Positions 23,731 through 42,259 of a DNA stretch of 64,000 bases are shown in pieces. Each line of letters begins with the position of its first letter. Position 1 is the first letter of the stretch. Source of the DNA: Desulfomonilia bacterium (lineage in GTDB: Bacteria > Desulfobacterota > Desulfomonilia > UBA1062); NCBI GenBank assembly GCA_050014195.1, contig JBEKDT010000007.1, forward strand, positions 128,001-192,000, in the 5' to 3' direction. A program made the position numbers and the translations under genes. Under the pieces are notes generated by a model. That model had not been told where the DNA came from, made no database searches, and saw only the letters and a list, made by a program, of their open reading frames with translations.

Positions 23731-24801
23731 ATGAAAAGAATCTTGCTGATACTGTTGCTTTTTGTTCTACCGATTTATTCCGGCTTTACTGCTGACACAA
23801 AATATGAGGTAGCTACCTTTGCAGGCGGCTGCTTCTGGTGCATGGACGCTGCTTTCGAAGATATCCCGGGCGTCATTGAAGTGATAACCGGATACACGGG
23901 TGGGCATACTAAGAACCCAACCTATGAAGAAGTTTCAGCCGGCGGAACAGGCCATGCCGAGGCAATCCAGGTTACATACGATCCAGCTAAGGTTACCTAT
24001 TCAAAGCTCCTTGATGTCTTCTGGAAGCAAGTCGACCCTACAGACCGCAGTGGTCAGATGGCTGACAGGGGATCACAATATAGAACGGTAATCTTCTATC
24101 ATACGGAGGAACAAAAGCGGCTTGCCGAGCAGTCAAAGCAAGTCCTTAAAGAATCAGGTAGGTTTAATAAACCTATTGTCACAGAAATTACAAAGGCAAC
24201 AGATTTCTACCCTGCAGAAGAGTACCACCAGCATTATTTCAAAAAGAATCCACTTGGCTATAACTCGGGACGCGATAACTATCTGAAGAAGGTATGGGCA
24301 GACAACAACAGTGTTTCACTCCCACGATATACAGATAAGGACTACAGAAAACCATCAAAAGTTGAACTGAAAAAGAAGCTCACACCCCTGCAATTCAGGG
24401 TGACCCAGAACAAGAGCACGGAACAACCATTCGATAACGAGTACTGGAATAATGAGCATGAGGGGATCTATGTTGATATTGTGTCCGGTGAGCCTCTATT
24501 CAGCTCTAAGGACAAATACGACTCTGGTACTGGATGGCCTAGCTTCACAAAACCGCTTGAACCTGGAAACATTGTAGAGAGGCAGGATGGAAGCTTGTAC
24601 ATGCTGAGGATCGATGTGAAGGAGGTTAGGAGTAAACTTGCTGACTCACACCTTGGCCATGTCTTTACGGATGGTCCTGCACCAACAGGACTGCGTTACT
24701 GCATGAATTCGGCTGCTCTGCTGTTTATTCCAAAAGAAGACCTGACAAAAGAAGGTTATGGGCGGTATCTTAATCTTTTCAAAAAAGATAATGAGTTCTA
24801 A
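23731..24801 (+). CDS. msrAB: Secreted fused methionine sulfoxide reductase MsrA/MsrB, copy 1
   Basis: Signal peptide; GGCFWC, AEEYHQ, GWPSF, HLGHVF.DGP, RYCMNS. Confidence 0.95.
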
Positions 24802-24960
24802 AGAACTCAACTCCTCATCCTATTCAAGTTAGAGTCGTTTCCTTGATGGTATCGTTGAAGCCTGCAATATTTATAGACATCTCTAATCTCTCTGGTTTTT
24901 TCAAATAAGAACATTATTTCTTAGGGGGAGATCAAAACCGAAACGAAAGGAGCATGATCC

Positions 24961-25269
24961 ATGAATAATGGCTTTCTTATGAGGAAGTTTGCCATTGCAG
25001 GGTGCCTGCTTTTACTCTTGTGCGGGGTGCATTGGACTGCGCAGGCTTCTGATGAAGAGAAAAAAGTGGTATTTGTCGTGGCTTGATATGACGTAGGCAA
25101 AGAGGCCTTGGAGAGGCTTCCAGGTGTAAAAAGGGTCGAAAAAGGATTCCATTTTTTTCAAGAAATAAACACTGTTTTTTATGACCCGTCAAAGATAACC
25201 GTCGACGAAATGGAAAGGGCGTTGAAGAAGGCAGGAACATATAAGAAGACATTGGGAGCGAAACCGTGA
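24961..25269 (+). CDS. Putative secreted selenoprotein with HMA/mini-MsrA-like domain (Sec codon 25084-25086)
   Basis: AGGAG RBS; signal peptide; ...VVFVVA-TGA-YDVGKEALERLPGVKRV..FYDPSKITVDEMERALKKAG; SECIS-like hairpin 25102-25120. Not in the ORF track. Confidence 0.75.
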
Positions 25270-25437
25270 GCATCCTTCCTGTCAAACCGGGAATGAGGTG
25301 AAGGAATGTCCGGGTCGTATCATCTCAGTTTGATGCTCTCTGAAAACTAAAGATAGTTAAGGTATGGGTTTCTTTTTACTCAAGACAAACACTACATAAA
25401 TAACTATAAGTTTCCAATTATTCAGGAGGAATAAAAG

Positions 25438-26511
25438 ATGATCAGAAATATCATGAAAGGATTTATAGCCATATTGCTTGTATTGCCACTATCTACCGGG
25501 AACGCAGCTAATACAAAATATGAACTGGCTACCTTTGCCGGGGGATGCTTCTGGTGCATGGTGCATCCCTTTGATAAGCTCCCTGGGGTGAAGGAGGTTC
25601 TCTCAGGATACACCGGGGGACATACCGTCAACCCCACCTATGAGGAGAACTCATCCGGGACAACAGGCCATGCCGAGTCCATCCAGATAACCTATGACCC
25701 AGCGAAGATATCATATGCGGACCTGCTAGAGGTATTCTGGCGGCAGATTGACCCGACCGATGCAGGGGGGCAGTTTGTGGACAGGGGAAACCAGTATAGG
25801 AGCGCCATCTTCTATCACAACGATGAGCAGAAGAGACTCGCAGAGGAGTCCAGGGACCGTCTCGCAAAGTCAGGCAGATTTACAAAACCCATCGTCACCG
25901 AGATTGTGAAGGCTGGCCCGTTCTATAAGGCAGAAGAATACCACCAATATTACTACAAGAAAAACCCGGTCCGGTATAAATATTATAGGTACAGATCAGG
26001 CCGAGACCAATTCCTTGACAAGGTCTGGGGGAAAGACAGGGAAGATACACCAGCAAAGGTTAAAACAGGTTCATACACCAAGCCGAGTGCAGAGGTCCTG
26101 AAAAAGAAGCTCACACCAATGCAGTTCAAGGTAACCCAGAAGGGTGGAACAGAACCGGCTTTTGATAATGCATATTGGAACAACAAGCATGAAGGGATTT
26201 ACGTGGATATCGTCTCCGGAGAACCACTATTCAGCTCCAAGGATAAGTATGACTCCGGCACCGGCTGGCCAAGCTTTACCCGGCCTCTGGAGCCGGGCAA
26301 TATCGTGGAGAAGCAGGATAATACCCTGTTCACTACAAGGACAGAGGTCAGGAGCAGGCATGCAGATTCTCATGTTGGGCATGTATTCAATGACGGCCCA
26401 CCCCCTACGGGACTGCGCTATTGCATGAACTCGGCTGCCTTGCGCTTTATCCCCAAGGAAGACCTGCAAAAGGAAGGATACGGACAGTATCTTAAACTAT
26501 TTGATAAATAA
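25438..26511 (+). CDS. msrAB: Secreted fused MsrA/MsrB, copy 2
   Basis: [17 protein letters not shown]; signal peptide; AGGAGG RBS. Confidence 0.95.
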
Positions 26512-26577
26512 AATGAATCTTCCTGATAAGATGGATGATTCCTTTTATCATAGGTTGATTCCCTGAGACTCAAATGC

Positions 26578-27279
26578 TCAAGTTAAAGGTCCCGACTGCC
26601 CCTTTATTTGAAGGGATGCCTTGATCTTCTTGTAGACTGTCGGGATCAATGCAAAAAGCCCAAGGAGTGCAAAGGAGATGAGCACACGGGGACTCGCAAC
26701 ATCACGCATGGTATTGATGGATGCAATGCTCGAACCTGCATTCGCATAGACGAAGCTTCCGGGAAGAATCCCCACCATGGTACCTATGATGTAGGTCCTC
26801 AGCTGCAGGCCCGTGATCCCACAGGCAAGGTTGACGAGGAAAAATGGAAAGAGTGGGACTAGTCGCAAAAAGAGGAGGTACGACATCCCGCTTTCGCTGA
26901 GTCCCCTATCCAGGGCCTCCATTTGTTTGCCGAACTTTTTCACCACCCAGTCCCGCAGCAGGTTACGGGCCAGGAGAAAGGCCAGGACAGCCCCCATCGT
27001 GGCCCCGATATTCACCCATATCGTTCCCATTAGCGCCCCAAATACGGCTCCGCCAGCCAGGGTAAGGATGGCCGCCCCAGGCAGGGAAAGGGCGGTCTGC
27101 ACAGTATAGATGACGATGTAGCTCACGATGAAGATGAGCATGTGGTTTGAATAGTAATTCAGGAGATAGTCTCTGTTTGTCTTGAGGCTTTCAAGTGTGA
27201 GGTATCTTCCGAGATCCAAATAGTAAAATATGCCGATCGCGAGGGCAATGATAATGAGTAATGCTATCTTCTTTTTCAT
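26578..27279 (-). CDS. TVP38/TMEM64 (DedA/SNARE-associated) membrane protein
   Basis: LSLPGA..LTLAGGAVFG, FLRLVPLFPF..N motifs. Confidence 0.92.
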   Translation of the reverse strand: MKKKIALLIIIALAIGIFYYLDLGRYLTLESLKTNRDYLLNYYSNHMLIFIVSYIVIYTVQTALSLPGAAILTLAGGAVFGALMGTIWVNIGATMGAVLAFLLARNLLRDWVVKKFGKQMEALDRGLSESGMSYLLFLRLVPLFPFFLVNLACGITGLQLRTYIIGTMVGILPGSFVYANAGSSIASINTMRDVASPRVLISFALLGLFALIPTVYKKIKASLQIKGQSGPLT

Positions 27280-27431
27280 TGGTTCTCCGCTATCGCTTCT
27301 TCTCCATTGAGAGATACAGAATAATCATGATCATCATCCGGGAGCTTGAAAATATCTCCATTTACCATCTGCAGATTTAATAAAGGGAATTGATCACCAG
27401 TATCCAATGCATTTGAACTCACCCTGGCCAT
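27276..27431 (-). pseudogene. Truncated N-terminus of a peroxiredoxin/redoxin-like gene
   Basis: GGAGG RBS; MARVSSNALDTGDQFPLLNLQMVNGDIFKLPDD.. ends before any active site; stop overlaps the TVP38 ATG. Confidence 0.55.
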
Positions 27432-27617
27432 GTTTTTCCTCCAAGATTGGATTATCTTCTGTATAATGATAAGCTTCTAATGTCAGGAATCAAAAAGGTT
27501 GATATTTTTATCATGCCCTGAGTCCTTGTTTAATTCTTATATCTCCCTATCATAATCTACCAATTTGCTGAGAAAAAATCCTAAGCAAAAAACAAACTTC
27601 ATGAACACGGTATCATC

Positions 27618-29126
27618 TTGAGTGAGGGAGGACAGAAGATGCCAACCTTTGATTATGATCTCGGAATCATCGGCGGAGGAGCTGCAGGGCTGACAGCCGC
27701 GGCAGGCAGCGCACAGTTCGGTGCAAAGACCATCCTTATAGAGAAAACAGACAAGCTAGGGGGAGATTGCCTCCATGTGGGCTGCGTTCCGTCAAAGACA
27801 CTCATCCGCACTGCACGGGTATGGGCACAGGCAAAAAGATCCAAAGAATTCGGTCTGCCGGAACTGTTGCTTCCCCCTGTCGATCTCGGTGCAGTCATGG
27901 ACCGAGTACATGCGGTCATAGAGAAGATCCAGCACCACGATTCTGCTGAACGGTTCTGCTCTCTCGGGGCGCGCGTCCGCTTCGGGAGCCCTGCCTTTGT
28001 GGATAACCATGTAGTAAACCTTGACGGTGAACGCATCTCGGCAAAGAGCTGGATCATCGCCACCGGGTCGAGCCCTGCCCTGCCTCCGGTAGAGGGATTG
28101 AGTAGTGTGGCGTTCTGGACCAACGAGACCGTATTCTCTCAGAGGAAGCTCCCCAGGTGCCTCATCGTGCTGGGTGGCGGACCTATCGGCCTGGAGCTGG
28201 CCCAGTCATTTGCACGTCTGGGAGCAAAAGTTATCGTTGTAGAATTCATGGGCCAGATCCTGGGCCCTGAAGACGCTGACCTCGCTGACATCCTGAAAGA
28301 GCGACTTGTTGCCGAGGGTGTGGAAATCCATACCGATACCAAGGCTATCAGAGCAGAATCAAGTGGCGAAATGATTGCACTGACTATTGGGCCTTCAAAG
28401 GGGGAGGGACCAACCCAAGTCATCGAAGGGGATGCCATTCTTGTTGCAGCTGGACGCAAGCCGAATATTGAAGGTCTTAATCTCGATGCCGCCGGAGTAA
28501 AATATACTCCGAGGGGCATCCCTACAAACGACCGGATGAAGACCAATATCTCCCATATCTATGCCTGCGGTGACATCAACGGAGTCATGCCGTTCACCCA
28601 CGTTGCTGGCTATGAAGGCGGGATCGCGCTCACCAACGCCGTGCTCCGCCTGCCTAGGAAGGCGGACTATTCAAAGATCGGGTGGTGCACCTACACAGAC
28701 CCTGAGGTCGCGAGCATCGGGCTCAATGAAAAACGCGCCCAGAAAGAAGGCACCGGGTACCGCGTCATCGAAGAGCACTTTGTAGATAACGACCGGGCAC
28801 TTGCAGAGGGAGAGACGTTGGGCAAGATTAAGATGCTCGTGAGCCCGAAAGGCTCTCTGCTTGGCTGTCAAATCATCGGGGCGCATGCGGGAGAGCTCAT
28901 CCATGAGTGGATAGTGTCCATGGCTGCTGGTATTAAACTTTCAACCATGGCGGGCACAGTGCATATCTACCCTACCATGTCTGAAATCTCCAAGCGCGTA
29001 GCAGGCGACCTATTCGCATCGAAGATCTTTTCGGAAAAGACCAAGACTGTGCTCCGCCTGCTTTTCAACCTCAAAGGCAGGGCGTGCAGCCTGACTGAAG
29101 CAGTTGCTGATAACCTTCACTCGTGA
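27618..29126 (+). CDS. FAD-dependent pyridine nucleotide-disulfide oxidoreductase (MerA/LpdA-like)
   Basis: GGGAAG, GGDCLHVGCVPSK, GGGPIGLE, HIYPT; no C-terminal CC pair; probable start ATG 27639. Confidence 0.9.
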   Translation: MSEGGQKMPTFDYDLGIIGGGAAGLTAAAGSAQFGAKTILIEKTDKLGGDCLHVGCVPSKTLIRTARVWAQAKRSKEFGLPELLLPPVDLGAVMDRVHAVIEKIQHHDSAERFCSLGARVRFGSPAFVDNHVVNLDGERISAKSWIIATGSSPALPPVEGLSSVAFWTNETVFSQRKLPRCLIVLGGGPIGLELAQSFARLGAKVIVVEFMGQILGPEDADLADILKERLVAEGVEIHTDTKAIRAESSGEMIALTIGPSKGEGPTQVIEGDAILVAAGRKPNIEGLNLDAAGVKYTPRGIPTNDRMKTNISHIYACGDINGVMPFTHVAGYEGGIALTNAVLRLPRKADYSKIGWCTYTDPEVASIGLNEKRAQKEGTGYRVIEEHFVDNDRALAEGETLGKIKMLVSPKGSLLGCQIIGAHAGELIHEWIVSMAAGIKLSTMAGTVHIYPTMSEISKRVAGDLFASKIFSEKTKTVLRLLFNLKGRACSLTEAVADNLHS

Positions 29127-29227
29127 TTAATATTAATACGCCATGGAATAGTGTCCTTGACACTTGTTTTTTTGATGATCTTAAAGCGGGGAATATAGTA
29201 CATGATATAAGAAGAAGGAAATGTAGC

Positions 29228-30220
29228 ATGACGTCTTCTGAGCAGATCAGGCTGCTCAATGACAATCCATTGAACATATCGTTTCATAAGAGGATCATCT
29301 CGCCTCTCTGCGCTGATGCCATCGACATACTCCAGATAAATGTGGGTAAAAGATGCAACCTCTCGTGCAGGCACTGCCATGTTGAGGCCGGGCCACACAG
29401 GTCAGAGGTAATGGGCATGCAGGTTTTCGAGAAGTGTCTTCAAGTGCTCCAAGATCACCCGATCGGTACCATAGATATTACCGGTGGTGCTCCGGAAATG
29501 AACCCTGAGCTTCCATGGTTTATTCAGGAAGCTGCCGGATTGAAGCGCAGGCTGATGGTTCGCTCGAACCTCGTTATCCTCCTTGAGAAGCCCTATGAGC
29601 ATCTCATAGACCTTTATGCAGATAATAAGGTCGAGATTATCGCCTCCTTGCCTGATTACCACGAAGAACGGGGCAACAGACAGAGGGGGGAAGGAGTTTT
29701 CAAGCGAATCCTGGAAGTGATGCGACTGCTCAATGAGCGGGGATACGGCAAGCCTGGGAGTAGCCTGATCCTGGATCTTGTCTATAATCCTGTGGGCACC
29801 TACCTGCCCGGGGCGCAGCAGGCCCTGGAGTATGAATATAAAACCAGGATGGAAAGCGAGCACGGAGTCGTCTTCAATACCCTCTATTGCCTGGTCAACT
29901 CACCAGTGGGCAGGTATCTCGACTATCTAATCCGATCGGAGAACTTTGAAGATTACATGCATGCCCTCAATACATCCTTTAACCCATCTACTATTCATTG
30001 TCTGATGTGCCGGAATACCCTGTCCGTAGGATGGGATGGGCACTTGTATGACTGTGACTTCAATCAGATGCTGGGTCTGACGGTTGAATGTACTCCCTCA
30101 AACAATATCAACAATTTTGATTTTGAAAGATTGAGAAACCGGAAGATCGTCATCGGCAATCACTGCTTTTCCTGTACTGCAGGTGCAGGTTCATCATGCC
30201 AGGGAGCTCTTGAAAAATAG
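29228..30220 (+). CDS. arsS: ArsS-like radical SAM protein (DUF3641 C-terminus)
   Basis: CNLSCRHC, DITGGAPE, LMCR, YDCDFNQM, HCFSCTAGAGSSCQG; start moved to 29228. Confidence 0.85.
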   Translation: MTSSEQIRLLNDNPLNISFHKRIISPLCADAIDILQINVGKRCNLSCRHCHVEAGPHRSEVMGMQVFEKCLQVLQDHPIGTIDITGGAPEMNPELPWFIQEAAGLKRRLMVRSNLVILLEKPYEHLIDLYADNKVEIIASLPDYHEERGNRQRGEGVFKRILEVMRLLNERGYGKPGSSLILDLVYNPVGTYLPGAQQALEYEYKTRMESEHGVVFNTLYCLVNSPVGRYLDYLIRSENFEDYMHALNTSFNPSTIHCLMCRNTLSVGWDGHLYDCDFNQMLGLTVECTPSNNINNFDFERLRNRKIVIGNHCFSCTAGAGSSCQGALEK

Positions 30221-30309
30221 TTCACAACTGGAGATACCTTTACTTAGCATAGGTTGATCAAGCGGTAATAAACTTATATCCTCAATATTATGAAAAAGAG
30301 GTGGTAAAA

Positions 30310-30771
30310 ATGGGAGAGATCGTTCACACTTCACGCATCAAAATTTTCCGTGAAAAAGGCCCCACCCGAAGAGCACTCATTGAGGGGTTTAATGAGCCTG
30401 TATATTACGGTGTACATGGTGGGATAAAGAAGTTTTATAAAGTCGAACCTGAAAAGGAGCACGCTGCGACTCTTGATCATATCGTAGCAGCAGTTGCTGC
30501 CTGAATGATGGGAACACTGGCCACGGTGCTGGCCGGAAAAAAGATCCCCACCCCTGAAGATAAATACTGGGCAGAAGTTGAAGGTGATATCGAGGATGTC
30601 AATGGTATACTCAAGATCACCCGGATACGGGTGAATTACCATCTCAGATTGCTTCAGGAGAAAATCGGAGAGGCAAAAGAGGCCTTTTCTCTCTATCTCC
30701 CCTTTTGTCCCGCAGCCCAAAGCGTCATAGGCTGTATCGATATCAGGGATGATTTGATCATAGAGCAATAG
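30310..30771 (+). CDS. OsmC-family selenoprotein (Sec codon 30502-30504)
   Basis: Two abutting in-frame ORFs; AAVAA-TGA-MMGT at the first OsmC Cys position, second Cys in CPAAQS; SECIS-like hairpin 30517-30536. Confidence 0.85.
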
Positions 30772-31054
30772 ACTGTATCATTGATTCGGGACAAGTTAAA
30801 TCATTGAGCTAAGAGTCCGGATGTCAGATCTTGTTCTCCAGATTGTCATTTTTTATGATCCACACAGAACACATAGATTCCGTGATAATCAAAGCCTGAG
30901 TTGAAGTTCTCGATACATAGATAATATGCCAAGGCCAATGGTTATTCCAGAGCATTTCTTTCCAAACGGAACGGTTTGCCCATAGTGAATATTTGTAACA
31001 AATAATCACCAATTGTTCATTAGCCGTGTGGAAGAGTGATATTTATTATTTCTA

Positions 31055-31257: not shown

Positions 31258-31623
31258 TTATTTCTCATCACTGTCATCTAATTTTGCCCTCAATGCAGTG
31301 GATAAGGAGAAGGTAATAGCACGCCTTGGGGATATGATCATTTCTTCGCCGGTCTTCGGATTACGACCTCTTCTCGCTCGCTTCTCCCTTACATGGAATT
31401 TACCAAAACCGGAGAAATTAACATCCTCACCCTTGCTCAGATTGGATTTGATAATCTGAATGAAAGTTTCGATACCTTCAGATGCAGTTACTTTATCCAG
31501 ACCTGTGTTCATGAGTATATCCTCAATAATATCCTCTTTGGTCAGATTCATATGGTCTCCTCTTAAGAATAAAATTCTTACTGTGCTTATAAGGAATATA
31601 CCATATGTAAGATAACATTCCAT
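31258..31623 (-). CDS. IHF/HU-family DNA-binding protein (IHF-alpha-like)
   Basis: SGFGKF..RRGRNPKTGEE; probable start MNLTKED (~31551). Confidence 0.9.
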   Translation of the reverse strand: MECYLTYGIFLISTVRILFLRGDHMNLTKEDIIEDILMNTGLDKVTASEGIETFIQIIKSNLSKGEDVNFSGFGKFHVREKRARRGRNPKTGEEMIISPRRAITFSLSTALRAKLDDSDEK

Positions 31624-31789
31624 AAGTTATCTTCAAACTGACCCCCCCCTCCCTTAATGCTTTGTTGATAGGATTGAGATGGTTTGAAGTATGATCCCGC
31701 ATGCAGCATGAAGATAGGAATATTATAATCAACCTTGCAAAGTAACTTTAACAATCATAGAATCAAATATTATATCAAGAGGAGTTTCC

Positions 31790-32212
31790 ATGAGGAAAAA
31801 GAGTCTGGAGTTCGTTCTGATGGTCAATGCTGTACTGGAGATCAAGGGTGATCAGGCACAGGTTGTTGTAAAAAATATCAAAGTAAAACCATCCATCATA
31901 TCTTTGCCAGTTGAGGCAGCTCCTACCATGAAGAGGAAACGTATAAAGAAGAAGCTCAGTAAATCAATCCATGACATAATCTTAGAATCTGCGAAAAAGG
32001 TCTCCAAGAAAGCAGATGATGGAATCTTCAAATCGGTGGACCTGTTTAATGTGGCAATCAAGAAATACCCTGAGCTGAATAAGAAGAGTTTCAACACCAT
32101 GGTCATATCAGCAGCCCCGGAACACACCTCATGGAAGTATACTCGCAATGGGAAGGACTACTTGGTCTATCTGGGCAAAGGGAGATATAAGCTGAGTGAT
32201 AAGATTAAGTAG
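31790..32212 (+). CDS. Hypothetical basic protein, possible winged helix
   Basis: GAGGAG RBS; Lys-rich; C-terminal GKGRYKL. Confidence 0.65.
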   Translation: MRKKSLEFVLMVNAVLEIKGDQAQVVVKNIKVKPSIISLPVEAAPTMKRKRIKKKLSKSIHDIILESAKKVSKKADDGIFKSVDLFNVAIKKYPELNKKSFNTMVISAAPEHTSWKYTRNGKDYLVYLGKGRYKLSDKIK

Positions 32213-32284
32213 GGTATCAGCTGTCCATTATACGAAAGCAAAAGATTCGCATCATATCTTTTCAATAAATACGAGGAGGCACTC

Positions 32285-33686: not shown

Positions 33687-34292
33687 CTGTGAAATACATA
33701 ATAGTGATCATATGAAGGTGCCAATATAAAAAATCCAGTTTAATGGAGAATAAGACTCCTGTTTTTGCTCGGCAGATGTGTAAATTTCGTGCCGAGGCTA
33801 ATGGTTATTCCAGAGCATAGATTTATTTTGATAATCATCGAAAAAGATGGGCATGAAAAATCATAGATTAATACCATTATCAACAGTTTGATCATATTGG
33901 TGATAACTTCAATAAATGATCGCTTTCAAATCAGTCCTGAAAGTAGATGTATTCAGATGTAATCTAAGCTTGGGGACATCGCATATCAAAGTCCACATTA
34001 CCCATTCTTGGTTCCGATACCCGAGCTACAATAATAATTACAAAGTATGAACAAAGTTACCCCTTGCTATTATGGTCTTCTAAACCGCTATCTTCCTTAT
34101 ATGCAAGACCACCTCCTGAATAAGATTACCTAAGAACAATCTTCGAGCTCTCTTTACCATCATCACTGCTTCGGTATTCAGTCATCTTAAGTCTGATATC
34201 AAGTTACTACATGAGGCATTGATGAATCAAATGGTGCTCTCAGGACTGTAATAGATACCTTCATATGCATAAGATCTATAACGGAAAGAAGG

Positions 34293-34775
34293 TTGCTCAT
34301 GAAAAACTCATGGTTATTTATACTTGTTTTCATGATTCCAGGAACAGAAGTGATTCTTCTGTATAGTGAAAAGATTATTATTGATAAAGAAGACGAGGAT
34401 AATCCCTCTATTCAACAGAAGGCCATACAGCCAATACTTTCTGCTCCAACGTCAAAAGTGAATGAATCTGCTCTCATAAAAAGCGCTACAGATGAGATAA
34501 AGATTTCTGACAGGAATGAAATCCATTTCGATTTTGTCATGCCCACCCTTGAGCCTGATGTGCCAGATATATTGAACCAGAAGCTGTCTTTCATCAAGGT
34601 ACATCCAGATTTTAAATTTTGGATAAAGAGAAATCATGGTGAAGGAGACACAATAGGATCAAAACTTACACTTGGTGACCGTAGGGCTAGGGCTTTCCAG
34701 AACGATCTTGTTCATCAGGGAATGAAGAAAGAACGGGTTTCATCCATAAGTTATGTGGAGGTGAATCATGGTTGA
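34293..34775 (+). pseudogene. Degenerate Pal/OmpA-C paralogue
   Basis: IHFDF, LGDRRA, SSISY retained; lipobox, DERG and KNRR lost. Confidence 0.65.
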
Positions 34776-35076
34776 AAACAATTCAAACTGTCCAAAAAGT
34801 CACCATATTTTATCTGCTTCCGCAAATCTACTGGGCATATGCTTTTTGATATTCAACATTATCAGGGTATCAAAGATGCATGAGAAGACCTTTCTCGATG
34901 ACCTATGCCTGGTAGGGATACTTTTATTCATGGCTTCCAGTTTAATGTCATATAGTTCTATACGTTCTACGACAAAACAGGATTCTTATGAAAAAGCGGC
35001 AGATACTATCTTCATGGGTGCTCTGCTCTTCTTGTGTCTTGTTACTACGGTTACAGCTCTTGGGCTGATCTATTGA
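34768..35076 (+). CDS. Small 3-TM membrane protein (paralogue of 18465-18773)
   Basis: KSHHILSAS.NLLGICFLIF.IIRVS.MHEKT.LDDLCLVGILLFMA shared. Confidence 0.8.
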   Translation: MVENNSNCPKSHHILSASANLLGICFLIFNIIRVSKMHEKTFLDDLCLVGILLFMASSLMSYSSIRSTTKQDSYEKAADTIFMGALLFLCLVTTVTALGLIY

Positions 35077-35092
35077 AGGATAGAACTTGTGT

Positions 35093-35782
35093 TTATTTCC
35101 CTTCCGAGAGTTCCTCAAGGGCTTTATAGTCCAGAATAGTGATCATCCGGCCCTGAACTTCCAGTACCCCATCATTCTGCATCTTTCGCAGCGTCCGGGA
35201 CAGGGCCTCGGGAGTTGCTCCCAGTATCTTGGAAAGTTCCCGGTGGGTGACCGGGAGGTCGATCCTCAGGCCGTTCTCTTCATCCTTCCGGTACAGGGCC
35301 ATGATTAAACCGGCCAGACGCTGGGGAATCTCTTGGAGAGCCAGGGACTCGATGAGGCTCATGGATTCCTTGAGCCTTCGGGACAACACCCGCAGGATGT
35401 TCAGGAGGAGTGCAGGTTCTTTCATGACGATATCTTCAACGGCTGGTCCGGGAATGGTGAGTATGTCGGACTTTTTCAGTGCAAGTGCCTCGGCGGGAAA
35501 ATCATGGGTGGCAAAGGCTGTACACAGGCCGAATGGTTCCCCAGGCCCTAAAAGGTACAGGGTCTGTTCCTTACCTTCTATCGAGCTCTTGGAGAGTTTC
35601 ACCTGCCCTGAAACAACGACAAAGAACTGCTTGACCAGGTCCGTCTCAGCAACGATCACCTCTCCCGGTTGGTATGTCCCGATCAGTATACGCCGGGATA
35701 GAGCCTCCAATACTTTATTGGAGAGCCCTTGAAAAATAGAGATGTCCTGTATCTGTTTCAGAGTATCCATAAAAAATTTCAT
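35093..35782 (-). CDS. Crp/Fnr family transcriptional regulator
   Basis: cNMP-binding fold (GQVKL..GKEQTL..GPGEPFG) + HTH (THRELS..GATPEALSR); no FNR Cys cluster. Confidence 0.92.
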   Translation of the reverse strand: MKFFMDTLKQIQDISIFQGLSNKVLEALSRRILIGTYQPGEVIVAETDLVKQFFVVVSGQVKLSKSSIEGKEQTLYLLGPGEPFGLCTAFATHDFPAEALALKKSDILTIPGPAVEDIVMKEPALLLNILRVLSRRLKESMSLIESLALQEIPQRLAGLIMALYRKDEENGLRIDLPVTHRELSKILGATPEALSRTLRKMQNDGVLEVQGRMITILDYKALEELSEGK

Positions 35783-35783
35783 T

Positions 35784-35803
35784 TCATTGATCTAGATCAA
35801 TGA
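35784..35803. promoter_or_regulatory. FNR-type box TTGAT-N4-ATCAA in a perfect 20-bp palindrome
   Basis: TCATTGATCTAGATCAATGA between the divergent crp/fnr and trxA genes. Confidence 0.85.
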
Positions 35804-35906
35804 CTGTATCGCCATGGGGGTATATGTCTAGCTTCATGGGATGAGATCTTTTTATCATAAGGAAGAATCCCTGAGCAAAAGAAATCACAGATGTAAGGAG
35901 TGAAAG

Positions 35907-36242
35907 ATGGCTGACAAAGAATACGTAATTCATGCAGATGATAACACGTTTGATGTCGCTGTTAAGAAATCTGATTACCCCATCCTGGTAGATTTCTGGG
36001 CACCCTGGTGCGGACCCTGCCGGGCTATCGGGCCTGTGCTTGAAGAGATAGCCAAGGAATATGATGGGCGGGTGAATGTCGTGAAGGTGAATGTTGATGA
36101 GAGTCCTGAAACGTCGAGAAAATTCGGGGTCCGGAGCATCCCAACATTATTGTTCATAAAGCAGGGAAAGGTTCAGGATACCCAGGTGGGATCATTACCC
36201 CGGACACAGCTGGCATCCTTTATAGACAAGAATTTAGCATAA
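35907..36242 (+). CDS. trxA: Thioredoxin
   Basis: DFWAPWCGPC, SIPTL. Confidence 0.97.
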   Translation: MADKEYVIHADDNTFDVAVKKSDYPILVDFWAPWCGPCRAIGPVLEEIAKEYDGRVNVVKVNVDESPETSRKFGVRSIPTLLFIKQGKVQDTQVGSLPRTQLASFIDKNLA

Positions 36243-36277
36243 CAAATCAGTAACATGAGAAAGAAGGAAAATAGTCC

Positions 36278-36499
36278 ATGAACGATTTTTTGCTATTCAT
36301 TCTCATTGTGTTTGTCTGGTACGTACTCCAGAGCTGGTTATTACCAAAACTGGGTGTACCGACCTGAGGGTCAAACCAGTCCTGCCAGGTGGCGGACAAA
36401 ACACCTAAAGGCACAGATAAGAAACCAGGCTTATCCAAGACAGTCTCTCTTGCAAAGGAAATGGTGGATCATGACAAAAAACATGGGAACAGCAGATAA
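36278..36499 (+). CDS. Putative small single-TM selenoprotein (Sec codon 36365-36367)
   Basis: AAGGA RBS; MNDFLLFILIVFVWYVLQSWLLPKLGVPT-TGA-GSNQSC..; SECIS-like hairpin 36379-36397. Confidence 0.65.
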
Positions 36500-36671
36500 G
36501 GCAATCAGGTTACTTTTAGTAATAGTAGTGGCAGTACTTTATCTTACAGGGTCAATAACCGGGGTTGCAGCAATCGTTCTGGGCATCATTGCAGCTATCT
36601 TTATCATCACCAGTCTCATCAGTTTCTGCCCACTGTATGTCCCGTTGAAGATTTCGACGAGAAAAAGATGA
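36471..36671 (+). CDS. DUF2892 (YgaP-like) membrane protein
   Basis: MTKNMGTADKAIR...FCPLY; true start lies inside track ORF 36306. Confidence 0.88.
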   Translation: MTKNMGTADKAIRLLLVIVVAVLYLTGSITGVAAIVLGIIAAIFIITSLISFCPLYVPLKISTRKR

Positions 36672-36786
36672 CAGCCACTCTATTGCTGCCCCTAGCCAGG
36701 CTAGGATGTTCTTATTATTATTAGGAAAATATGTAGAGCATGCACTGTTACACAAGGATATAGAAAATACCAGTCAGGAGGTAGAT

Positions 36787-38082
36787 ATGAGGAGAATCTC
36801 TAGTATTCTGGCATTAACAGTAATGACAATCATGGTGTCTAGTTCAGGAGCACTCGCCACCAACGGTGACAACCTGATCGGCATCGGGCCTATTTCCCGC
36901 TCCATGGGCGGAGTCGGCATCGCAGCCCCCCAGGACGCCATCAGTGCGGTGTTTGCAAACCCTGCAGCCATGTGCGTAGGACCATACTGCCCGGCCTCGG
37001 CCTTTGATTTTGCCGGCACTCTGTTCATGCCAAAGATCAAGGGAGAGGTCGATACGAATGGCAGCATCGTGAAGTCCGATAGTGCGGATACAGAATACAG
37101 TATACCTGCCATCGGTATCAGCGTGCCGATTACCGACAAGCTTCCCCTCTGGAGATTCGGCCTTGCAGCCTACGGGGTGACAGGCCTCGGTGTGGACTAT
37201 CGCGGCAAAGACCTTGACAAAGCCACACTCGGGGGGAGCTATCCTCTTGTTTCCGGGTCATATACCTCTCTCCAGGTCATGAAGTTCGCGCCTGCCATTG
37301 CGTTTGAACCGATGGATAAACTTTCCCTGGGCATGGCAGTGCATATCGACTATGCCACCCTGGATCTCAGGGACGGATCGTCACCGAATTATGGTGCAGG
37401 AGTCCAGCTCGGCGCCCTTTATCATCCCATTGATCCTGTCACTATCGGCCTGAATTATACAACACCCCAGAGAGTGACATATAAGAACGTCGCCGACTTC
37501 GAGCAGAATGGCACGCTCGACAACCTCAAACTCGATTCACCCCAGCAGCTTGGCGGGGGAGTGGCATATGAGAACCCCACAATCATGAACCTGCTCGTTG
37601 AAGCAGATGTGACTTGGGTGAACTGGTCGAACGCAGCAGGGTACTCTGACTTTGATTGGAAAGATCAGTGCGTTTATGCCCTGGGAGTCCAGGTGGAGCC
37701 TGTGAAGAGATTTACCTTGAGGGCCGGATATAACTACGGAAACAACCCGGTCAAGAAACACAACAACTTTAATGGAAGCTTTAATTTCTCCAACCCTCAA
37801 CAGCCGGTCCCCAACAGTGTCAAGAATGTCCAGGGTAGTACCCTGCCCACATACTACTATGAGACCTTCAGGATCATCGGGTTCCCTGCCATTGTGGAAC
37901 AGCATATAACCTGCGGCGCAGGTTATAAGTTTACCGATCGGTTTGCTGTGAACCTCGGTTATATGCATGCCTTTGAGAACACCATCTCTGAGTCCGGTAC
38001 CAACCCCCTGGGCCAGCCGGTCACACTCAAGTCAAAGCTGAGCGAAGACAGCCTTGATTTCGGGCTCACATGGTATTTTTAA
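36787..38082 (+). CDS. OmpP1/FadL-family outer membrane transporter
   Basis: SRSMGG..A, ANPAAM, C-terminal WYF; start at MRRISS after AGGAGG. Confidence 0.88.
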   Translation: MRRISSILALTVMTIMVSSSGALATNGDNLIGIGPISRSMGGVGIAAPQDAISAVFANPAAMCVGPYCPASAFDFAGTLFMPKIKGEVDTNGSIVKSDSADTEYSIPAIGISVPITDKLPLWRFGLAAYGVTGLGVDYRGKDLDKATLGGSYPLVSGSYTSLQVMKFAPAIAFEPMDKLSLGMAVHIDYATLDLRDGSSPNYGAGVQLGALYHPIDPVTIGLNYTTPQRVTYKNVADFEQNGTLDNLKLDSPQQLGGGVAYENPTIMNLLVEADVTWVNWSNAAGYSDFDWKDQCVYALGVQVEPVKRFTLRAGYNYGNNPVKKHNNFNGSFNFSNPQQPVPNSVKNVQGSTLPTYYYETFRIIGFPAIVEQHITCGAGYKFTDRFAVNLGYMHAFENTISESGTNPLGQPVTLKSKLSEDSLDFGLTWYF

Positions 38083-38128
38083 TGCAGGAACAGCTCCGAT
38101 CAACTCGGCAAGATAGCACACAGGAGGC

Positions 38129-41100
38129 ATGAGAATGTCGAATCTCAGCAATACCCATAAGGAATATCTCAAGGAAAAATTCAAGGACCGTGTGAATTTC
38201 GATGACGTGGAGCGAATGCTCTACAGCCACGACATAGCTGCCATGCCGAGTCTTATCAAGCCGCTCATCGGCGATACCACCCCTGATGCTGTGGTGCAGC
38301 CCCAAAGCGAAGAAGAGCTGAAAGAATTGGTGATGTGGGCCGCCAAAAACCATGTCCCGCTCACACCGAGGGGAAAGGCATCATCGGGCTATGGAGGGGT
38401 CCTGCCAGTTGAGAACGGCATTGTGGTGGACTTCTATCGAATGAAAAAGGTGCTTTCTGTCGATAAAGACAAGCTTACAGCAACTGTCCAGCCCGGAATC
38501 GTCTGGGAGGCGCTTGATCATGAGTTGAAGAAGAAAGGCATGACGCTGCTTACCTACCCATCAAGCTACCCGAGCTCAACGGCAGGGGGCTGGCTTGCCC
38601 AGGGAGGTGCTGGCTTCGGTTCATTTGAAGCAGGCTGGTTCAGGGACATCGTGCTGAGCGCCCGTGTCGTGCTCCCCGATGGCATGGTCAGTGTTTTTGA
38701 GGGGAAAGATCTTGATATGATCAGCGATGCGGAAGGCATAACCGGTCTCATCAGCGAGATCACCCTAAAGGTTCAGAATGATGAGCCCATGGATCTGGTC
38801 TCCATCGGCTGTCCGAACCCCCACGATCTCCAGAATCTCATGGAGGCAATGATAGCGCAGGACCTGCCCATATGGTCCATCGTGTTTATCAACCCCAAGA
38901 TGGCTGAAATGAAGAACCAGGCGCCCATCATGGAGCACTGGGGACACCCTGCAGAGGAGCGAGTGCTCCTGCCTGCATCCTACATCATCACACTCACATT
39001 CAGAAAGAAGGACTCCCAAAAAATTATGGACGGCCTCAATAAGATCATCAAGCTATGCGAGGCTGAAATCTTGAGCGATAGAATAGCACACCATGAATGG
39101 AAACACCGATTCAAGCTCATGGTTGTGAAACGCTTAGGCCCAAGCCTTGTGCCCGCAGAGGTGGTCATCCCGCTGTCTGCCTTCGGCGACTTCATGAAGA
39201 AGGTGGAGAGCACCATCCAGCAGCCCGTGGTAAAGGAAGGCGTGGTCATCAGGAAATCCACATCCGGCAAGCCCGAGGTGGTCATCCTCGGATTCATCCC
39301 GAGCGATGAGCGGAAGTTCAGCTACAACTTTGTCTTCCCCCTGTCGCTCACAGTCATGAAGATCGCTGAAAAATATGGCGGACGAGCGTATGCCACAGGG
39401 CTCTATTTCAAGAGCAAGGCAAAGGCAGTCCTTGGGAAGGACCGGCTTGCACGGATGAAATCTTTCAAGAAAAAGATAGACCCCAAGGGTATTCTCAACC
39501 CCGGCAAGGTGCTTGGCGCAGGACTTATCGGGACTGCTGTAAAACTGGCAAGCATATTCGAGCCGTTCATAAGGCCTTTCAGTTATGCCATCATCACGGA
39601 AGTGGGGGAGAGGCCTGAAAAAGATGTTCGGGATATCCCACCTGATGTTGCCTGGTATGCCTACAGCTGCTCCCAGTGCGGCTACTGTGTGGATGAGTGC
39701 GACCAGTTCTATGGTCGGGGATGGGAGAGCCAAAGCCCGAGAGGCAAATGGTACTGGTTGCGCGAGTACATGAAGGGCAAGCAGGAGTGGAACCAGAAGA
39801 TGGTGGATACCTTTCTTGTGTGTACCACCTGTGAGCTCTGCAATTTCCGCTGCTCTGCAGCGCTTCCTATCGAACCCTCCTGGATGAAGCTCAGGGGCAA
39901 GCTTGTAGATGAAGAAAAGAAGATGACCTTCCCGCCCTTTGAGATCATGTCTGCTGCAGCCATGAAAGAAGGCAATATCTGGGCCGGTTATCGTAAGGAC
40001 CGATCTAAATGGTTCCCTGAAGATCTGAAAGAGAAGCACGGACCCGGAGTAACGGCCAAGAACGTCTATTTTGCAGGGTGCACGGCCAGCTATGTGGAAG
40101 AAGACATCGGTATGGCGAGCGTGCGGCTGCTGGACAAGGCAGGGGTGGATTTCACCTATGTGGGCAACAAGGAGAACTGCTGCGGCACTCCCATGCTCGT
40201 TGCCGGCAAGTGGGATGTTTTCGAAGCGATCATGAGGAAGAACATCAAGGCTGTCAAAGAAGCGGGCAGTGACACCGTTATTACCTCCTGTCCTGCATGC
40301 AACATGATGTGGCGACATGTCTACCCGACATGGGCTAAAAAGCTGGGTATCGATTATGACATAACGGCACGCCACTACAGCGAGATCCTTTCGGAAAAGA
40401 TAAGATCGGGCGAGTTCACCTTCCCAGATACGGGGCAGAAGGAGGTCACGGTCACCTGGCATGACTCATGCCATATCGGACGCGTCTCTGGCGTTTATGA
40501 GGAACCACGGGACCTCATCAAGGCGATCCCCCATGTGAAATTCGTTGAGATGGATTATCATCATGCCGAGGCGCACTGCTGCGGGAGCGTGCTCAACCTC
40601 CTCAAGGAGCCCCTGGTAGCCGCGGATATCGGTGAGACGCGCCTGAACGAGGCACTGGATGCTGGAGCCCAGAAGGTCCTGGCCCTGTGCCCATGTTGCG
40701 AGTTCCAGTTCCGGGTCACTGCGGACAAGAAGAAGATGCCCATCGAAGTAGTTGACCTCGCACGGTTCTCCGCGTCCGCCCTGGGGTATGATTTCCCTGA
40801 TCCCAACCCCGAGGTGGCCAAGCAGTGGGCCGTGTTCGAAGCCATGATAGCACTCATGACTCCGCAGGGGTTTGCCGACCTCATGGGCACCATGTGGCCA
40901 GAGCTCATCTCGTCAATGCCGTTCGGCATGGGGCCCATGATGCGCATTATGGGCAAAATCCCGGGTGCACTTGACCTCATGAAGCCCATGTTCCCAATAC
41001 TCTTCCCCAGGCTGCTGCCCATGATGATGCCTAAGGTCATGGACACCATGCTCAAGAAGGTGGGCGAGCGCATCCCCATGCCCGACTACATGCGCGAGCA

Positions 41101-41215
41101 GATGCCTGAACTTATGCCCAAGGTCATGGATAACCTTATGCCTCATATGATAGGTGATGTGGTGCCGCTGGTCACTCAGCCCATGATTAATTATTTAAAA
41201 GGAAAACCACATTAA
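38129..41215 (+). CDS. FAD-binding (GlcD/LDH-like) + 4Fe-4S + CCG-domain oxidoreductase with Met-rich tail
   Basis: PRGKASSGYGG, DPKGILNPGK, CSQCGYC..C, CTTCELC..C, two CCG motifs. Confidence 0.9.
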   Translation: MRMSNLSNTHKEYLKEKFKDRVNFDDVERMLYSHDIAAMPSLIKPLIGDTTPDAVVQPQSEEELKELVMWAAKNHVPLTPRGKASSGYGGVLPVENGIVVDFYRMKKVLSVDKDKLTATVQPGIVWEALDHELKKKGMTLLTYPSSYPSSTAGGWLAQGGAGFGSFEAGWFRDIVLSARVVLPDGMVSVFEGKDLDMISDAEGITGLISEITLKVQNDEPMDLVSIGCPNPHDLQNLMEAMIAQDLPIWSIVFINPKMAEMKNQAPIMEHWGHPAEERVLLPASYIITLTFRKKDSQKIMDGLNKIIKLCEAEILSDRIAHHEWKHRFKLMVVKRLGPSLVPAEVVIPLSAFGDFMKKVESTIQQPVVKEGVVIRKSTSGKPEVVILGFIPSDERKFSYNFVFPLSLTVMKIAEKYGGRAYATGLYFKSKAKAVLGKDRLARMKSFKKKIDPKGILNPGKVLGAGLIGTAVKLASIFEPFIRPFSYAIITEVGERPEKDVRDIPPDVAWYAYSCSQCGYCVDECDQFYGRGWESQSPRGKWYWLREYMKGKQEWNQKMVDTFLVCTTCELCNFRCSAALPIEPSWMKLRGKLVDEEKKMTFPPFEIMSAAAMKEGNIWAGYRKDRSKWFPEDLKEKHGPGVTAKNVYFAGCTASYVEEDIGMASVRLLDKAGVDFTYVGNKENCCGTPMLVAGKWDVFEAIMRKNIKAVKEAGSDTVITSCPACNMMWRHVYPTWAKKLGIDYDITARHYSEILSEKIRSGEFTFPDTGQKEVTVTWHDSCHIGRVSGVYEEPRDLIKAIPHVKFVEMDYHHAEAHCCGSVLNLLKEPLVAADIGETRLNEALDAGAQKVLALCPCCEFQFRVTADKKKMPIEVVDLARFSASALGYDFPDPNPEVAKQWAVFEAMIALMTPQGFADLMGTMWPELISSMPFGMGPMMRIMGKIPGALDLMKPMFPILFPRLLPMMMPKVMDTMLKKVGERIPMPDYMREQMPELMPKVMDNLMPHMIGDVVPLVTQPMINYLKGKPH

Positions 41216-41236
41216 AAGAGAACCAGGGAGGGAACC

Positions 41237-41620
41237 ATGAGAATAGGAAGATCTCTAGGTCTAGTATTCTTACTTATCCTGACAGTAGGAATTATTCAGG
41301 GGTGCTCTCATCGTTGGCATGATTGGGATGATCAATGTTATGGCCATGGTGGAGGAATGATGTGGCATGGTGGAGGCTGTGGGCCAGGCATGATGGGCTC
41401 AGGACCAGGTTACTATCGTTCTGGAGAACCACTAACAATTGATCAAGCCAAATCGACAGTGGAACGTTATATAGCTTTTTCAAGAAATCCTAATATCAAG
41501 GTTGGTCAAGTCACAGAAAAAGACAAATATTTTGAGGCTGAGATTATCACAAAAGAAGGATCTATAGTAGATAAGCTTATGATAGATAAGCAAACCGGAT
41601 GGATGAGATCGGTTTATTAG
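41237..41620 (+). CDS. Lipoprotein with His/Gly/Met-rich segment and PepSY-like domain
   Basis: Lipobox IQGC; HGGGMMWHGGGCGPGMMG; IDKQTG. Confidence 0.75.
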   Translation: MRIGRSLGLVFLLILTVGIIQGCSHRWHDWDDQCYGHGGGMMWHGGGCGPGMMGSGPGYYRSGEPLTIDQAKSTVERYIAFSRNPNIKVGQVTEKDKYFEAEIITKEGSIVDKLMIDKQTGWMRSVY

Positions 41621-42259
41621 ATGAGCTATAGCAAAAAGCGTGATTTTAATAAGGAGGCAGCTTCCTGGGATGAAGAGCCAGGACGGGTAAAGATTGCTAA
41701 TGATATTGCTGATGCCATATCAGATGAAATAATTTTGACCCCAGATATGTCTTCTTTGGACTTTGGCTGTGGCACGGGTCTTTTGACCCTCAGGTTACAG
41801 CCTTTAGTCCATTCAATAACTGGTGTTGACAGTTCCCAAGGAATGCTTGATGTTCTTAAGGCGAAGATTGAAAATAAGAAGCTGACTAATGTAACAACTG
41901 AATACCTGGATCTAGAGAAGGGTGATGTTCTGGGTGGCATTTACCAACTAATTGTCAGCAGCATGACCTTGCATCATATTCAGAATATAAAACCTCTCTT
42001 CGATGAATTCTACAAGATATTATCTCCTGATGGATATCTCTGCATTGCTGATCTTGATCTCGATGATGGGAAGTTCCATGGCACCAATGAAGGGGTATTC
42101 CACTTTGGTTTTGATCGGGCAAAATTGCGTCAGGTTTTTATGGAGGCAGGATTTGATGCTATCCGGGATCGGACTGCTACAGAAGTAATGAAACCAACTG
42201 CTGATGGAATAAAGCAGCTTTTTACAATATTTCTTATGATAGGCCGGGAAAGTCCTTAA
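41621..42259 (+). CDS. Class I SAM-dependent methyltransferase
   Basis: LDFGCGTG, GVDSS, MTLHH. Confidence 0.92.
   Translation: MSYSKKRDFNKEAASWDEEPGRVKIANDIADAISDEIILTPDMSSLDFGCGTGLLTLRLQPLVHSITGVDSSQGMLDVLKAKIENKKLTNVTTEYLDLEKGDVLGGIYQLIVSSMTLHHIQNIKPLFDEFYKILSPDGYLCIADLDLDDGKFHGTNEGVFHFGFDRAKLRQVFMEAGFDAIRDRTATEVMKPTADGIKQLFTIFLMIGRESP

Follow-up and report, generated by a model that had tools for sequence, protein, structure and literature searches.

The region 23731-42259 of a 64,000-nt stretch of contig JBEKDT010000007.1 (GCA_050014195.1; the whole stretch is called the window here) is likely to carry three genuine selenocysteine (Sec) genes, which seem to belong to at least two independent functional units joined on a variable genomic island. 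This overall judgement is made from sequence and covers the mechanisms proposed below, and its parts differ in strength. Genes 2 and 3 are almost certainly predicted correctly as selenoprotein genes, and our confidence in the prediction for gene 1 is high; the two-unit structure of the region is very likely, and the specific mechanisms suggested for the units are tentative. The functions of all three selenoproteins are ones that we infer. The three predicted genes and the hairpins of selenocysteine insertion sequence (SECIS) type that follow their in-frame TGA codons are:

24961-25269, plus strand: gene 1, for a predicted exported selenoprotein resembling the N-terminal part of MsrA, with an HMA/MerP fold; 102 residues, Sec42 at TGA 25084-25086, true stop TGA 25267-25269
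25102-25120, plus strand: SECIS-type hairpin of gene 1; loop GGA, beginning 26 nt after the first base of the TGA
30310-30771, plus strand: gene 2, for a predicted OsmC-like selenoprotein (PF02566); 153 residues from ATG 30310 (156 from 30301), TGA 30502-30504
30517-30536, plus strand: SECIS-type hairpin of gene 2; loop CGGUGC
36278-36499, plus strand: gene 3, for a predicted single-helix membrane selenoprotein; 73 residues, Sec30 at TGA 36365-36367
36379-36397, plus strand: SECIS-type hairpin of gene 3, GUCCUGCC-AGGU-GGCGGAC, with a bulged C and the loop AGGU

The three TGA triplets are in frame exactly where an earlier note on this DNA had placed them (25084, 30502 and 36365), and the hairpin with GG in its loop that the note described after each codon was found as well, with the GG 20-24 nt past the codon in all three genes. 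The bacterial SECIS model quoted in PMC13188914 is a hairpin with G in the first two loop positions, located 16-37 nt from the UGA, and the hairpins of genes 1, 2 and 3 all have this loop G and this spacing. Comparison of homologues gave a consensus of 7 pairs for gene 1, with compensatory changes in 3 of them (16 sequences), and of 7 pairs for gene 2, 1 with a compensatory change (15 sequences). For the gene 3 family, the minimum-energy fold of 23 of 28 members put a hairpin 19-26 nt from the TGA with G as the first or second base of its loop, although the stems differed completely by lineage (CUGCC/GGCAG, UGUCC/GGACA, GUUCCGG/CCGGAAC, GUAUCGA/UCGAUAC). Because the peptide of gene 3 is not conserved past its second Cys, it is the RNA and not the protein that is under selection there; the hairpin, which has no U-tract after it, is not a terminator.

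Three checks named in the earlier note, namely Cys-containing homologues aligned at the TGA, conservation 3′ of the codon and the presence of selA, selB, selC and selD in the host, all came out in favour of Sec. Homologues of gene 1 have TGA at 16 loci, Cys in two sequences (P0005 and L073) and Ser in one (L074), and the site of gene 2 is Cys in 10 and W in 7 of 17 full-length homologues, the W forms being most simply explained as TGA read under code 4 by metagenome gene callers. In the best 150 of 799 clusters found for gene 3, the site is Cys in 78, W in 20, R in 4 and G in 1, while 44 sequences end exactly there and 3 fall outside the motif pattern. Coding sequence is kept downstream of the TGA in the homologue alignments of all three genes; past the TGA of gene 1, UYDVGK-ALEGL-GV--VEKGF----EINTV-YDP--IT--EM is almost invariant. 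Every component of the host machinery scored above its curated cut-off (selB 332 bits, selA 525 bits, selD 381 bits, tRNA-Sec 72.9 bits), and the host selD itself has one in-frame TGA.

If the TGA codons were ordinary stops, the genes would be pseudogenes or would encode short leader peptides, with a 29-aa peptide upstream of the DUF2892 gene as the product of gene 3, and the hairpins would be attenuators or chance structures. Gene callers do terminate or split all three open reading frames (ORFs) at the TGA, as the earlier note had pointed out. The hairpin energies of single sequences are also unremarkable and weigh against Sec insertion; compared with shuffles, the window sequences alone gave z = -2.3 (gene 1), -0.5 (gene 2) and -1.2 (gene 3), so the support for the hairpins comes from the comparison across homologues and not from folding energy. 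No Rfam family reached its gathering score anywhere in the window, a null result that says little because, to our knowledge, Rfam holds no general bacterial SECIS model. Against ordinary stops, the frame and the conserved residues run on beyond the TGA in every family, many homologues have Cys at the aligned position, and the hairpins covary, hold their distance from the TGA and lack a trailing U-tract. In addition, the TGA is retained across phyla and the host has the full Sec machinery. We consider the ordinary-stop explanation very improbable; Sec would be inserted at all three TGA codons through the hairpins inside the ORFs and the host SelA, SelB, SelD and tRNA-Sec.

Gene 3 appears to represent an undescribed family. 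Its predicted product has a single hydrophobic helix, after which come LPKLGVPTUGSNQSC and a tail rich in Lys, and the members of the family are 45-75 residues long and share the motif LPxLGVxTU. The gene was detected in 184 of 401 sampled genomes of the phylum by a profile search and in 33 of the 52 genomes of the order by a six-frame search, with an in-frame TGA in every match listed. A word-index protein search was empty, but an exhaustive HMMER search of 1.84 billion representatives did recover the family, as the 799 clusters mentioned above; database names, where present, are "hypothetical protein". A pattern scan with one genome per species gave 80 loci (U at the site in 68, unparsed in 11, a false parse in 1), and the labels of the metagenome-assembled genomes included Desulfomonilia, Smithella/Syntrophaceae, Acidobacteriota/Vicinamibacteria, Myxococcales/Polyangia, Gemmataceae/Planctomycetales, Armatimonadota, Eisenbacteria and others. 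At the phylum level, the family occurs in Thermodesulfobacteriota, Acidobacteriota, Myxococcota, Planctomycetota, Armatimonadota and others.

The novelty of gene 3 was judged from Pfam-A, NCBIfam 20.0, Table 1 of PMC13188914, part of PMC12013277 (deep-Sep) and a literature search. The window protein matched no Pfam-A or NCBIfam 20.0 family at E ≤ 0.01, and the matches of 12 Sec forms (Pfam, E up to 10) and 18 Cys forms (E up to 1) were at chance level only. There was likewise no match to the small or hypothetical models cited in the inventory (NF041197, NF049953, NF049942, NF041374, NF045500, PF13798), and nothing fitting stands among the 119 families in Table 1 of PMC13188914. The literature search, with the supplementary tables of the inventories outside its scope, found no paper on a small bacterial membrane selenoprotein. 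Both gene 1 and gene 3 seem to be uncatalogued among the selenoprotein catalogues checked. Among 24 sequencing runs containing 35800-36900, none was an RNA run.

An N-out/C-in topology is suggested for the gene 3 product by its acidic N-terminus and Lys/Arg-rich tail (positive-inside rule). Anchored in this way, the protein would have its U-x(4-5)-C motif where the membrane meets the cytoplasm; there it might cycle between selenol and selenylsulfide, be recycled by thioredoxin and serve thiol, persulfide or peroxide chemistry. Eukaryotic SELENOK and SELENOS are small single-pass membrane selenoproteins with Sec near the C-terminus. The likeness to them is one of architecture and not of compared sequences: the gene 3 product is likewise very small, with one N-terminal helix, and its Sec is part of a tail that is short and charged and probably lies disordered in the cytoplasm. 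In gene 3, however, the Sec directly follows the helix and the SECIS lies inside the ORF.

Two observations weigh against this picture of gene 3. A large subfamily from Myxococcota and Acidobacteriota (TU-AVPxPRRSAR) has no second Cys, so that not every member can work through a U...C redox pair, and Sec alone must be the essential residue. The other is that the neighbours of gene 3 are heterogeneous outside the genus. Loci of the TU-AVPxPRRSAR subfamily include L130, L131, L137, L142, L144, L146 and L149-L151.

Around gene 3 itself, the window has the following genes, which with gene 3 form what we call unit C (35093-42259):

35093-35782, minus strand: Crp/Fnr-family regulator (PF13545, PF00027), divergent from the thioredoxin operon
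35907-36242, plus strand: thioredoxin (PF00085, 2.2e-33; TIGR01068, 128.7 bits)
36471-36671, plus strand: DUF2892 (YgaP-like transmembrane) protein, 66 aa (PF11127, 1.8e-18), with ATG and ribosome-binding site at 36471
36706-38082, plus strand: FadL/TodX-like outer-membrane channel
38129-41215, plus strand: FAD-linked oxidase fused to 4Fe-4S and two CCG domains
41237-41620, plus strand: 127-aa ORF of no assigned family
41621-42259, plus strand: SAM methyltransferase

The DUF2892 gene begins inside gene 3 and shares its last 29 nt, which corrects the earlier picture. A 121-aa ORF at 36306-36671 was considered as a real gene and rejected, because only its last 65 residues (56-120) match DUF2892 and the ATG with its ribosome-binding site is at 36471. 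Within the genus, the order Crp/Fnr regulator (divergent), thioredoxin, gene 3, (DUF2892), FadL is conserved, and thioredoxin was directly upstream in 13 of the 29 gene 3 loci probed. Elsewhere, fusions of CoADR and rhodanese adjoin gene 3 in all three Gemmataceae/Planctomycetales loci (3/3), and other neighbours are DUF302, DsrE/DsrC, rhodanese, OsmC, MsrAB, Usp, CcdA, MerR and radical SAM proteins. Thiol, persulfide and oxidative-stress chemistry would be the common theme, a pattern read from the lists and not from statistics. Unit C is probably an operon under Crp/Fnr control that comprises thioredoxin, gene 3, DUF2892, the FadL-like channel, the FAD/FeS/CCG oxidoreductase and the methyltransferase.

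The second uncatalogued candidate, gene 1, encodes a product with a signal-peptide-like N-terminus, a domain of 70 residues and a single Sec, with no Cys in the mature part. Strong matches (E ≤ 1e-18) were found in 14 of the 401 sampled genomes, this genome counted; the TGA form is present in 12 of them and a Cys or Ser form in 2. Two more genomes of the genus have the TGA form, and gene 1 is present twice in this genome. In the AF2 model, the core (pLDDT >90) has a beta-alpha-beta-beta-alpha-beta arrangement with the Sec in the loop before helix 1. The structure search (Foldseek, VIA) ranked HMA domains at the top and MsrA closely behind. Among the former, MerP 1osd gave TM 0.76 and CCC2a, ATP7B and CopA Z 9-9.8 (8-9.8 overall); among the latter, C. 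oremlandii MsrA 4lwj gave Z 8.1 with a root-mean-square deviation of 1.6 A over 68 residues (MsrA residues 6-98), T. denticola MsrAB Z 7.6 and the MsrA of Neisseria PilB Z 7.0.

Alignment of gene 1 with the neighbouring MsrAB by hhalign gave a probability of 94.3% and an E-value of 9.6e-8 over ~61 columns. It placed U42 of the gene 1 motif AUYDVG on the Cys of GGCFWC and the invariant E68 on the catalytic Glu of HAE. In this alignment with MsrA (PF01625; selenoprotein 4lwj), Sec42 and Glu68 fall on the catalytic Cys and Glu, although AUYDVG stands in the place of the GCFWG-type motif, and the YDP..IT strand is shared. An insertion of 17 residues found in MsrA is missing from gene 1, and so is the full PMSR domain of about 150 aa. 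At E ≤ 0.01, neither a Pfam HMA nor a Pfam PMSR match was found. Judged from sequence, gene 1 falls between HMA and MsrA and, by the thresholds of each, belongs to neither. It is a single-Sec variant near the HMA-type selenoproteins, and its link to MsrA and to Msr neighbourhoods seems to be new.

In the window, gene 1 lies between two fused methionine sulfoxide reductases, and the genes that follow lead up to gene 2; together they form unit A (23731-30771):

23731-24801, plus strand: MsrAB-1, fused methionine sulfoxide reductase A/B (PF01625, 1.2e-66; PF01641, 4.3e-44), with GGCFWC after the N-terminus
25438-26511, plus strand: MsrAB-2 (PF01625, 2e-65; PF01641, 3.9e-47)
26578-27279, minus strand: DedA/TVP38 (VTT-domain) membrane protein (PF09335, 2.8e-26)
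27618-29126, plus strand: FAD-dependent pyridine nucleotide-disulfide oxidoreductase, Lpd/MerA-like (PF07992, 8e-60), with CLHVGC
29123-30220, plus strand: ArsS-family radical SAM protein (TIGR04167, 416.7 bits, cut-off 300, residues 64-363)

All the neighbour genes that the earlier note had listed across the region (two MsrAB, DedA, the reductase, ArsS, thioredoxin, DUF2892, FadL and the methyltransferase) are present. The N-termini of MsrAB-1 and MsrAB-2 are signal-peptide-like by eye. The true start of ArsS is probably downstream of 29123, and its identity to the paralogue begins at 29209. The ArsS family is often a selenoprotein with a GxxU motif (PMC13188914 Table 1); the C-terminus here ends ...GAGSSCQGALEK and the site reads GSSC, so that this copy is a Cys form. 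The FAD reductase scored under the cut-offs of NF004991 (454 vs 620 bits) and MerA TIGR02053 (340 vs 454 bits). The FAD reductases associated with DedA have CLHxGC in common, and a C-terminal KGRAC is invariant in 7 of 7 sequences, a tail reminiscent of the mobile redox tails at the C-termini of MerA and large thioredoxin reductases. Read-through of the reductase stop (TGA 29124) was considered and rejected, because 3 of 7 orthologues end in TAG.

The surroundings of gene 1 were surveyed at 16 Sec-type loci from 14 genomes, with 8-kb flanks where the contig allowed. MsrA/B was adjacent at 9 of the 16 and a molybdenum (Mo) oxidoreductase (PF00174 and PF03404) at 4; the remaining 3, one of which is a 2.2-kb contig, had neither. 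Within 8 kb, the pair of DedA and FAD reductase was found at 7/16 loci and ArsS at 6/16, with an AhpD/CMD gene before ArsS in 5. Two distant loci illustrate the variation: the order in G246 is FAD reductase, DedA, DUF302, peroxiredoxin, gene 1, MsrA, AhpD, ArsS, and in G277 it is OsmC-Sec, two-component system, radical SAM/SPASM protein, DedA, FAD reductase, Mo-enzyme, gene 1. As for the conservation of gene neighbourhood that the earlier note had proposed to check, the 7-kb block around gene 1 does recur in three distant families, as a set of MsrAB, DedA, FAD reductase, ArsS and an OsmC-, peroxiredoxin- or AhpD-type protein, and the whole 18.5 kb does not. Beside the gene 1 homologue in G246, on the minus strand of contig C4 (L091), an MsrA ORF fits the PMSR profile only from position 62 and an AhpC/TSA ORF its own profile only from position 54 (ORFs 5652-6128 and 6748-7113); these may be further selenoprotein genes split at a TGA.

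The best-supported reading of unit A is an envelope redox/repair unit in which an exported selenoprotein would work with exported sulfoxide-reducing or Mo enzymes. The gene 1 product would act as the selenol partner of these periplasmic enzymes and resolve or relay their oxidised intermediates; alternatively, it might itself be a minimal sulfoxide or peroxide reductase. The DedA/FAD-reductase pair could supply or handle the cytoplasmic side, and the ArsS-type radical SAM enzyme and a cytoplasmic OsmC-like Sec peroxidase would complete the unit. A joint reading of both units may be put forward as possible, although we would not rely on it: the gene 3 family would provide a selenol anchored in the membrane at its cytoplasmic face, with thioredoxin or persulfide reductases to recycle it, and gene 1 would be an exported "mini-MsrA/HMA" selenoprotein in a new envelope redox relay with DedA and the FAD reductase, serving Msr and Mo enzymes. 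It is part of this joint reading that gene callers and selenoproteome surveys missed the gene 3 family because of its size.

Gene 2 is a new member of a known selenoprotein family. The Sargasso Sea selenoproteome of 2005 (PMC1088965) already included OsmC-like selenoproteins, and the 2026 inventory of 119 families (PMC13188914) lists them in its Table 1. The Sec is residue 65 from ATG 30310 (68 from 30301) in the motif AAUMMGT, and a conserved second Cys stands in FCPAAQS. The match to PF02566 (34.4 bits vs a cut-off of 27.5) spans the TGA. Gene 2 resembles the known proteins in its OsmC domain, Sec at the first catalytic Cys position, second Cys, Cys homologues and SECIS; the UxxT motif listed for the family, however, is replaced by U-M-M-G-T with Thr at +4, so the assignment is made because of the domain and not the motif. 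Its relation to the family is distant (34 bits), and its N-terminal extension of 55 residues is conserved within the subfamily to which it belongs. A whole-genome six-frame search found it in 53 of the 401 genomes at 60-80% identity, nearly all with one TGA. Among the best 120 database proteins, 101 are C-terminal pieces of 87-94 aa starting just past the TGA and 19 are near full length.

A serious rival for gene 1, which we nevertheless consider rather unlikely, is that its product is a periplasmic MerP-like chaperone for Hg, Cu, similar soft metals or selenium species, which passes its ligand via DedA to the MerA-like FAD reductase as in MerP-MerT-MerA; the Msr genes would then be nearby only because both answer envelope stress. 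Several results favour such a chaperone or weigh against our interpretation of unit A. The top structural and sequence matches of gene 1 are HMA metal binders (MerP, CopZ, ATPase domains), and hmmsearch of the PDB gave MerP at E 6.6e-4 compared with 0.16 for MsrA. Weak matches to NF041115, a model for metal-binding selenoproteins with UxxU, and to the C-terminal part of NF041383 were given by all 21 members of the family, and MerP is matched by 9/21 but msrA by 1/21. Gene 1 shares the fold with NF041115, MerP and CopZ, and it would be periplasmic like MerP. It also lacks the Trp of the MsrA CFW (Asp instead) and the C-terminal half including Tyr134, which therefore makes true sulfoxide reductase activity doubtful. 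The trio of periplasmic HMA protein, inner-membrane protein and cytoplasmic FAD/NAD(P)H disulfide reductase with a conserved C-terminal Cys tail, present at 7/16 loci, recalls the Mer relay. Furthermore, the DedA proteins have no conserved Cys and so cannot be a thiol relay, and the Mo-enzymes near gene 1 carry a Mo-co dimerisation domain, by which they resemble sulfite oxidase rather than MsrP.

Against the chaperone, gene 1 has a single Sec, neither a CxxC nor a UxxU pair and no Cys in the mature protein, and the family scores are far under the cut-offs (NF041115 28.7 vs 95; MerP 23.1 vs 92.55). The reductase is under the MerA cut-off as well and lacks both the NmerA domain and the C-terminal Cys pair, and DedA, with no conserved Cys, stands in the place of MerT. 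At 15 of 16 loci, MerT, MerR and P-type ATPase are not beside gene 1 (G069 has a cation ATPase nearby); it has Msr or Mo-enzymes and not mer or cop genes as partners, and the adjacency to Msr or Mo-enzymes (13/16) is tighter than that to DedA and the FAD reductase (7/16). The envelope redox/repair unit is the reading that we prefer for gene 1.

On the scale of the whole region, the earlier note had proposed one selenium-dependent cytoplasm-to-periplasm thiol/metalloid detoxification pathway of 18.5 kb that uses all three selenoproteins and is inherited as a unit on a mobile island. The three genes do lie within 12 kb, and the variable region that holds them has an integrase, an IS element and genes for nucleoid proteins; ArsS, a TehB-like methyltransferase match (3.8e-8), DedA and the MerA-like reductase cluster here; and in the distant G277 OsmC-Sec is 9 kb from gene 1 on the same contig. 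The claim was nonetheless not supported, and we regard it as improbable, since the region turned out to be a mosaic of at least three blocks that are duplicated separately in this genome and unlinked in relatives. The segments 23756-26546 and 29209-30841 (MsrAB, gene 1, MsrAB, ArsS, OsmC-Sec) recur at C7:82291-87112 with 89-92% identity, and this copy has an AhpD/CMD gene where the window has DedA and the FAD reductase. The segments 35100-36244 and 36829-41205 (Crp, thioredoxin, FadL, FAD/CCG enzyme) recur on C1 without gene 3 and DUF2892, so that the 585-bp segment 36244-36829 is an insertion/deletion difference between the copies.

Linkage in other genomes also argues against a single pathway. 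In the two closest congeners that bear the genes, they are on separate contigs (three different contigs in G036; unlinked also in G035). OsmC-Sec stands beside ArsS only in this genome among the loci examined; it had no ArsS, Msr, DedA or FAD-reductase neighbour at 13 of 13 loci outside the genus, bar one distant FAD-reductase-like match, nor in G036 of the same genus. Gene 3 is single-copy and occurs in 184/401 genomes, compared with 14 for gene 1. Between the two units the window has a block without redox genes, bounded by short repeats at 30927-30999 and 33785-33878:

31258-35076: non-redox spacer of ~4.3 kb between the redox blocks, with the next six features
31258-31623, minus strand: IHF-like
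31790-32212: DUF7669
32285-32560: HU
32700-33686: LpxL-like acyltransferase
34293-34775: OmpA/Pal-like
34768-35076: small membrane ORF

A role in metalloid detoxification would be conjecture. With regard to the copies, the second set of MsrAB, gene 1, MsrAB, AhpD/CMD, ArsS and OsmC-Sec extends over G000:C7:82291-88354, on the same contig outside the window, at 82-92% nucleotide identity, and its OsmC paralogue has 2 in-frame TGAs. The C1 paralogue (G000:C1:436891-442532) is 81-84% identical to Crp, thioredoxin, FadL and the FAD/FeS/CCG oxidoreductase.

Bacterial selenoproteome counts rely on pipelines that need a reasonable ORF length and a Cys homologue. Almost half of the phylum's sampled genomes carry the gene 3 family, yet it is recorded mostly as stubs of 29 residues. 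If our interpretation is true, very small membrane proteins would be a systematic blind spot of selenoproteome surveys, and this family would be among the more widespread selenoprotein families. Gene 1 with MsrAB or Mo-enzyme, DedA and FAD reductase offers a concrete partner set for the unsettled question of how exported methionine sulfoxide reductases that lack a thioredoxin domain are recycled; it also suggests a role that can be tested for one of the many pairs of DedA and FAD reductase to which no function is assigned. The annotation of all three genes can be corrected, and for gene 2 alone this concerns thousands of shortened database entries.

The location on a mobile island, also put forward in the earlier note, is credible. 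The region is variable and mobile-looking, with an integrase (2745-3836), an IS110 element (10625-11647), HU/IHF and a RecD2-like helicase; HEPN, patatin, CI-like repressor and GIY-YIG genes are also part of its content, and its G+C is patchy (0.35-0.53). In a comparison of 15 genomes of the genus, the left flank occurred in one only, while 13 of the 15 have the ABC-F gene of the right flank (49977). We found no convincing direct repeats of att type bounding the island and no tRNA gene in the window.

Several smaller features of the window were noted. The stretch 2745-10161, with a phage-type integrase, an LA2681-like HEPN protein, a patatin-like phospholipase and a CI-like repressor, is defence-island-like, and the IS110 element is flanked by direct repeats of 41 and 82 nt that are ~6.1 kb apart. 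In addition to the two repeats that bound the spacer, a short intergenic repeat at 42366-42403 (also 2519-2556) bounds sub-blocks; the ~95-nt element at 33785-33878 is copied at 80-88% identity on C3, C6 and C24 and thereby has a REP- or MITE-like look. Finally, 13653-16136 encodes a beta-propeller protein of 828 aa (lactonase/Kelch-like) with tandem repeats of 144 nt and ~213 nt.

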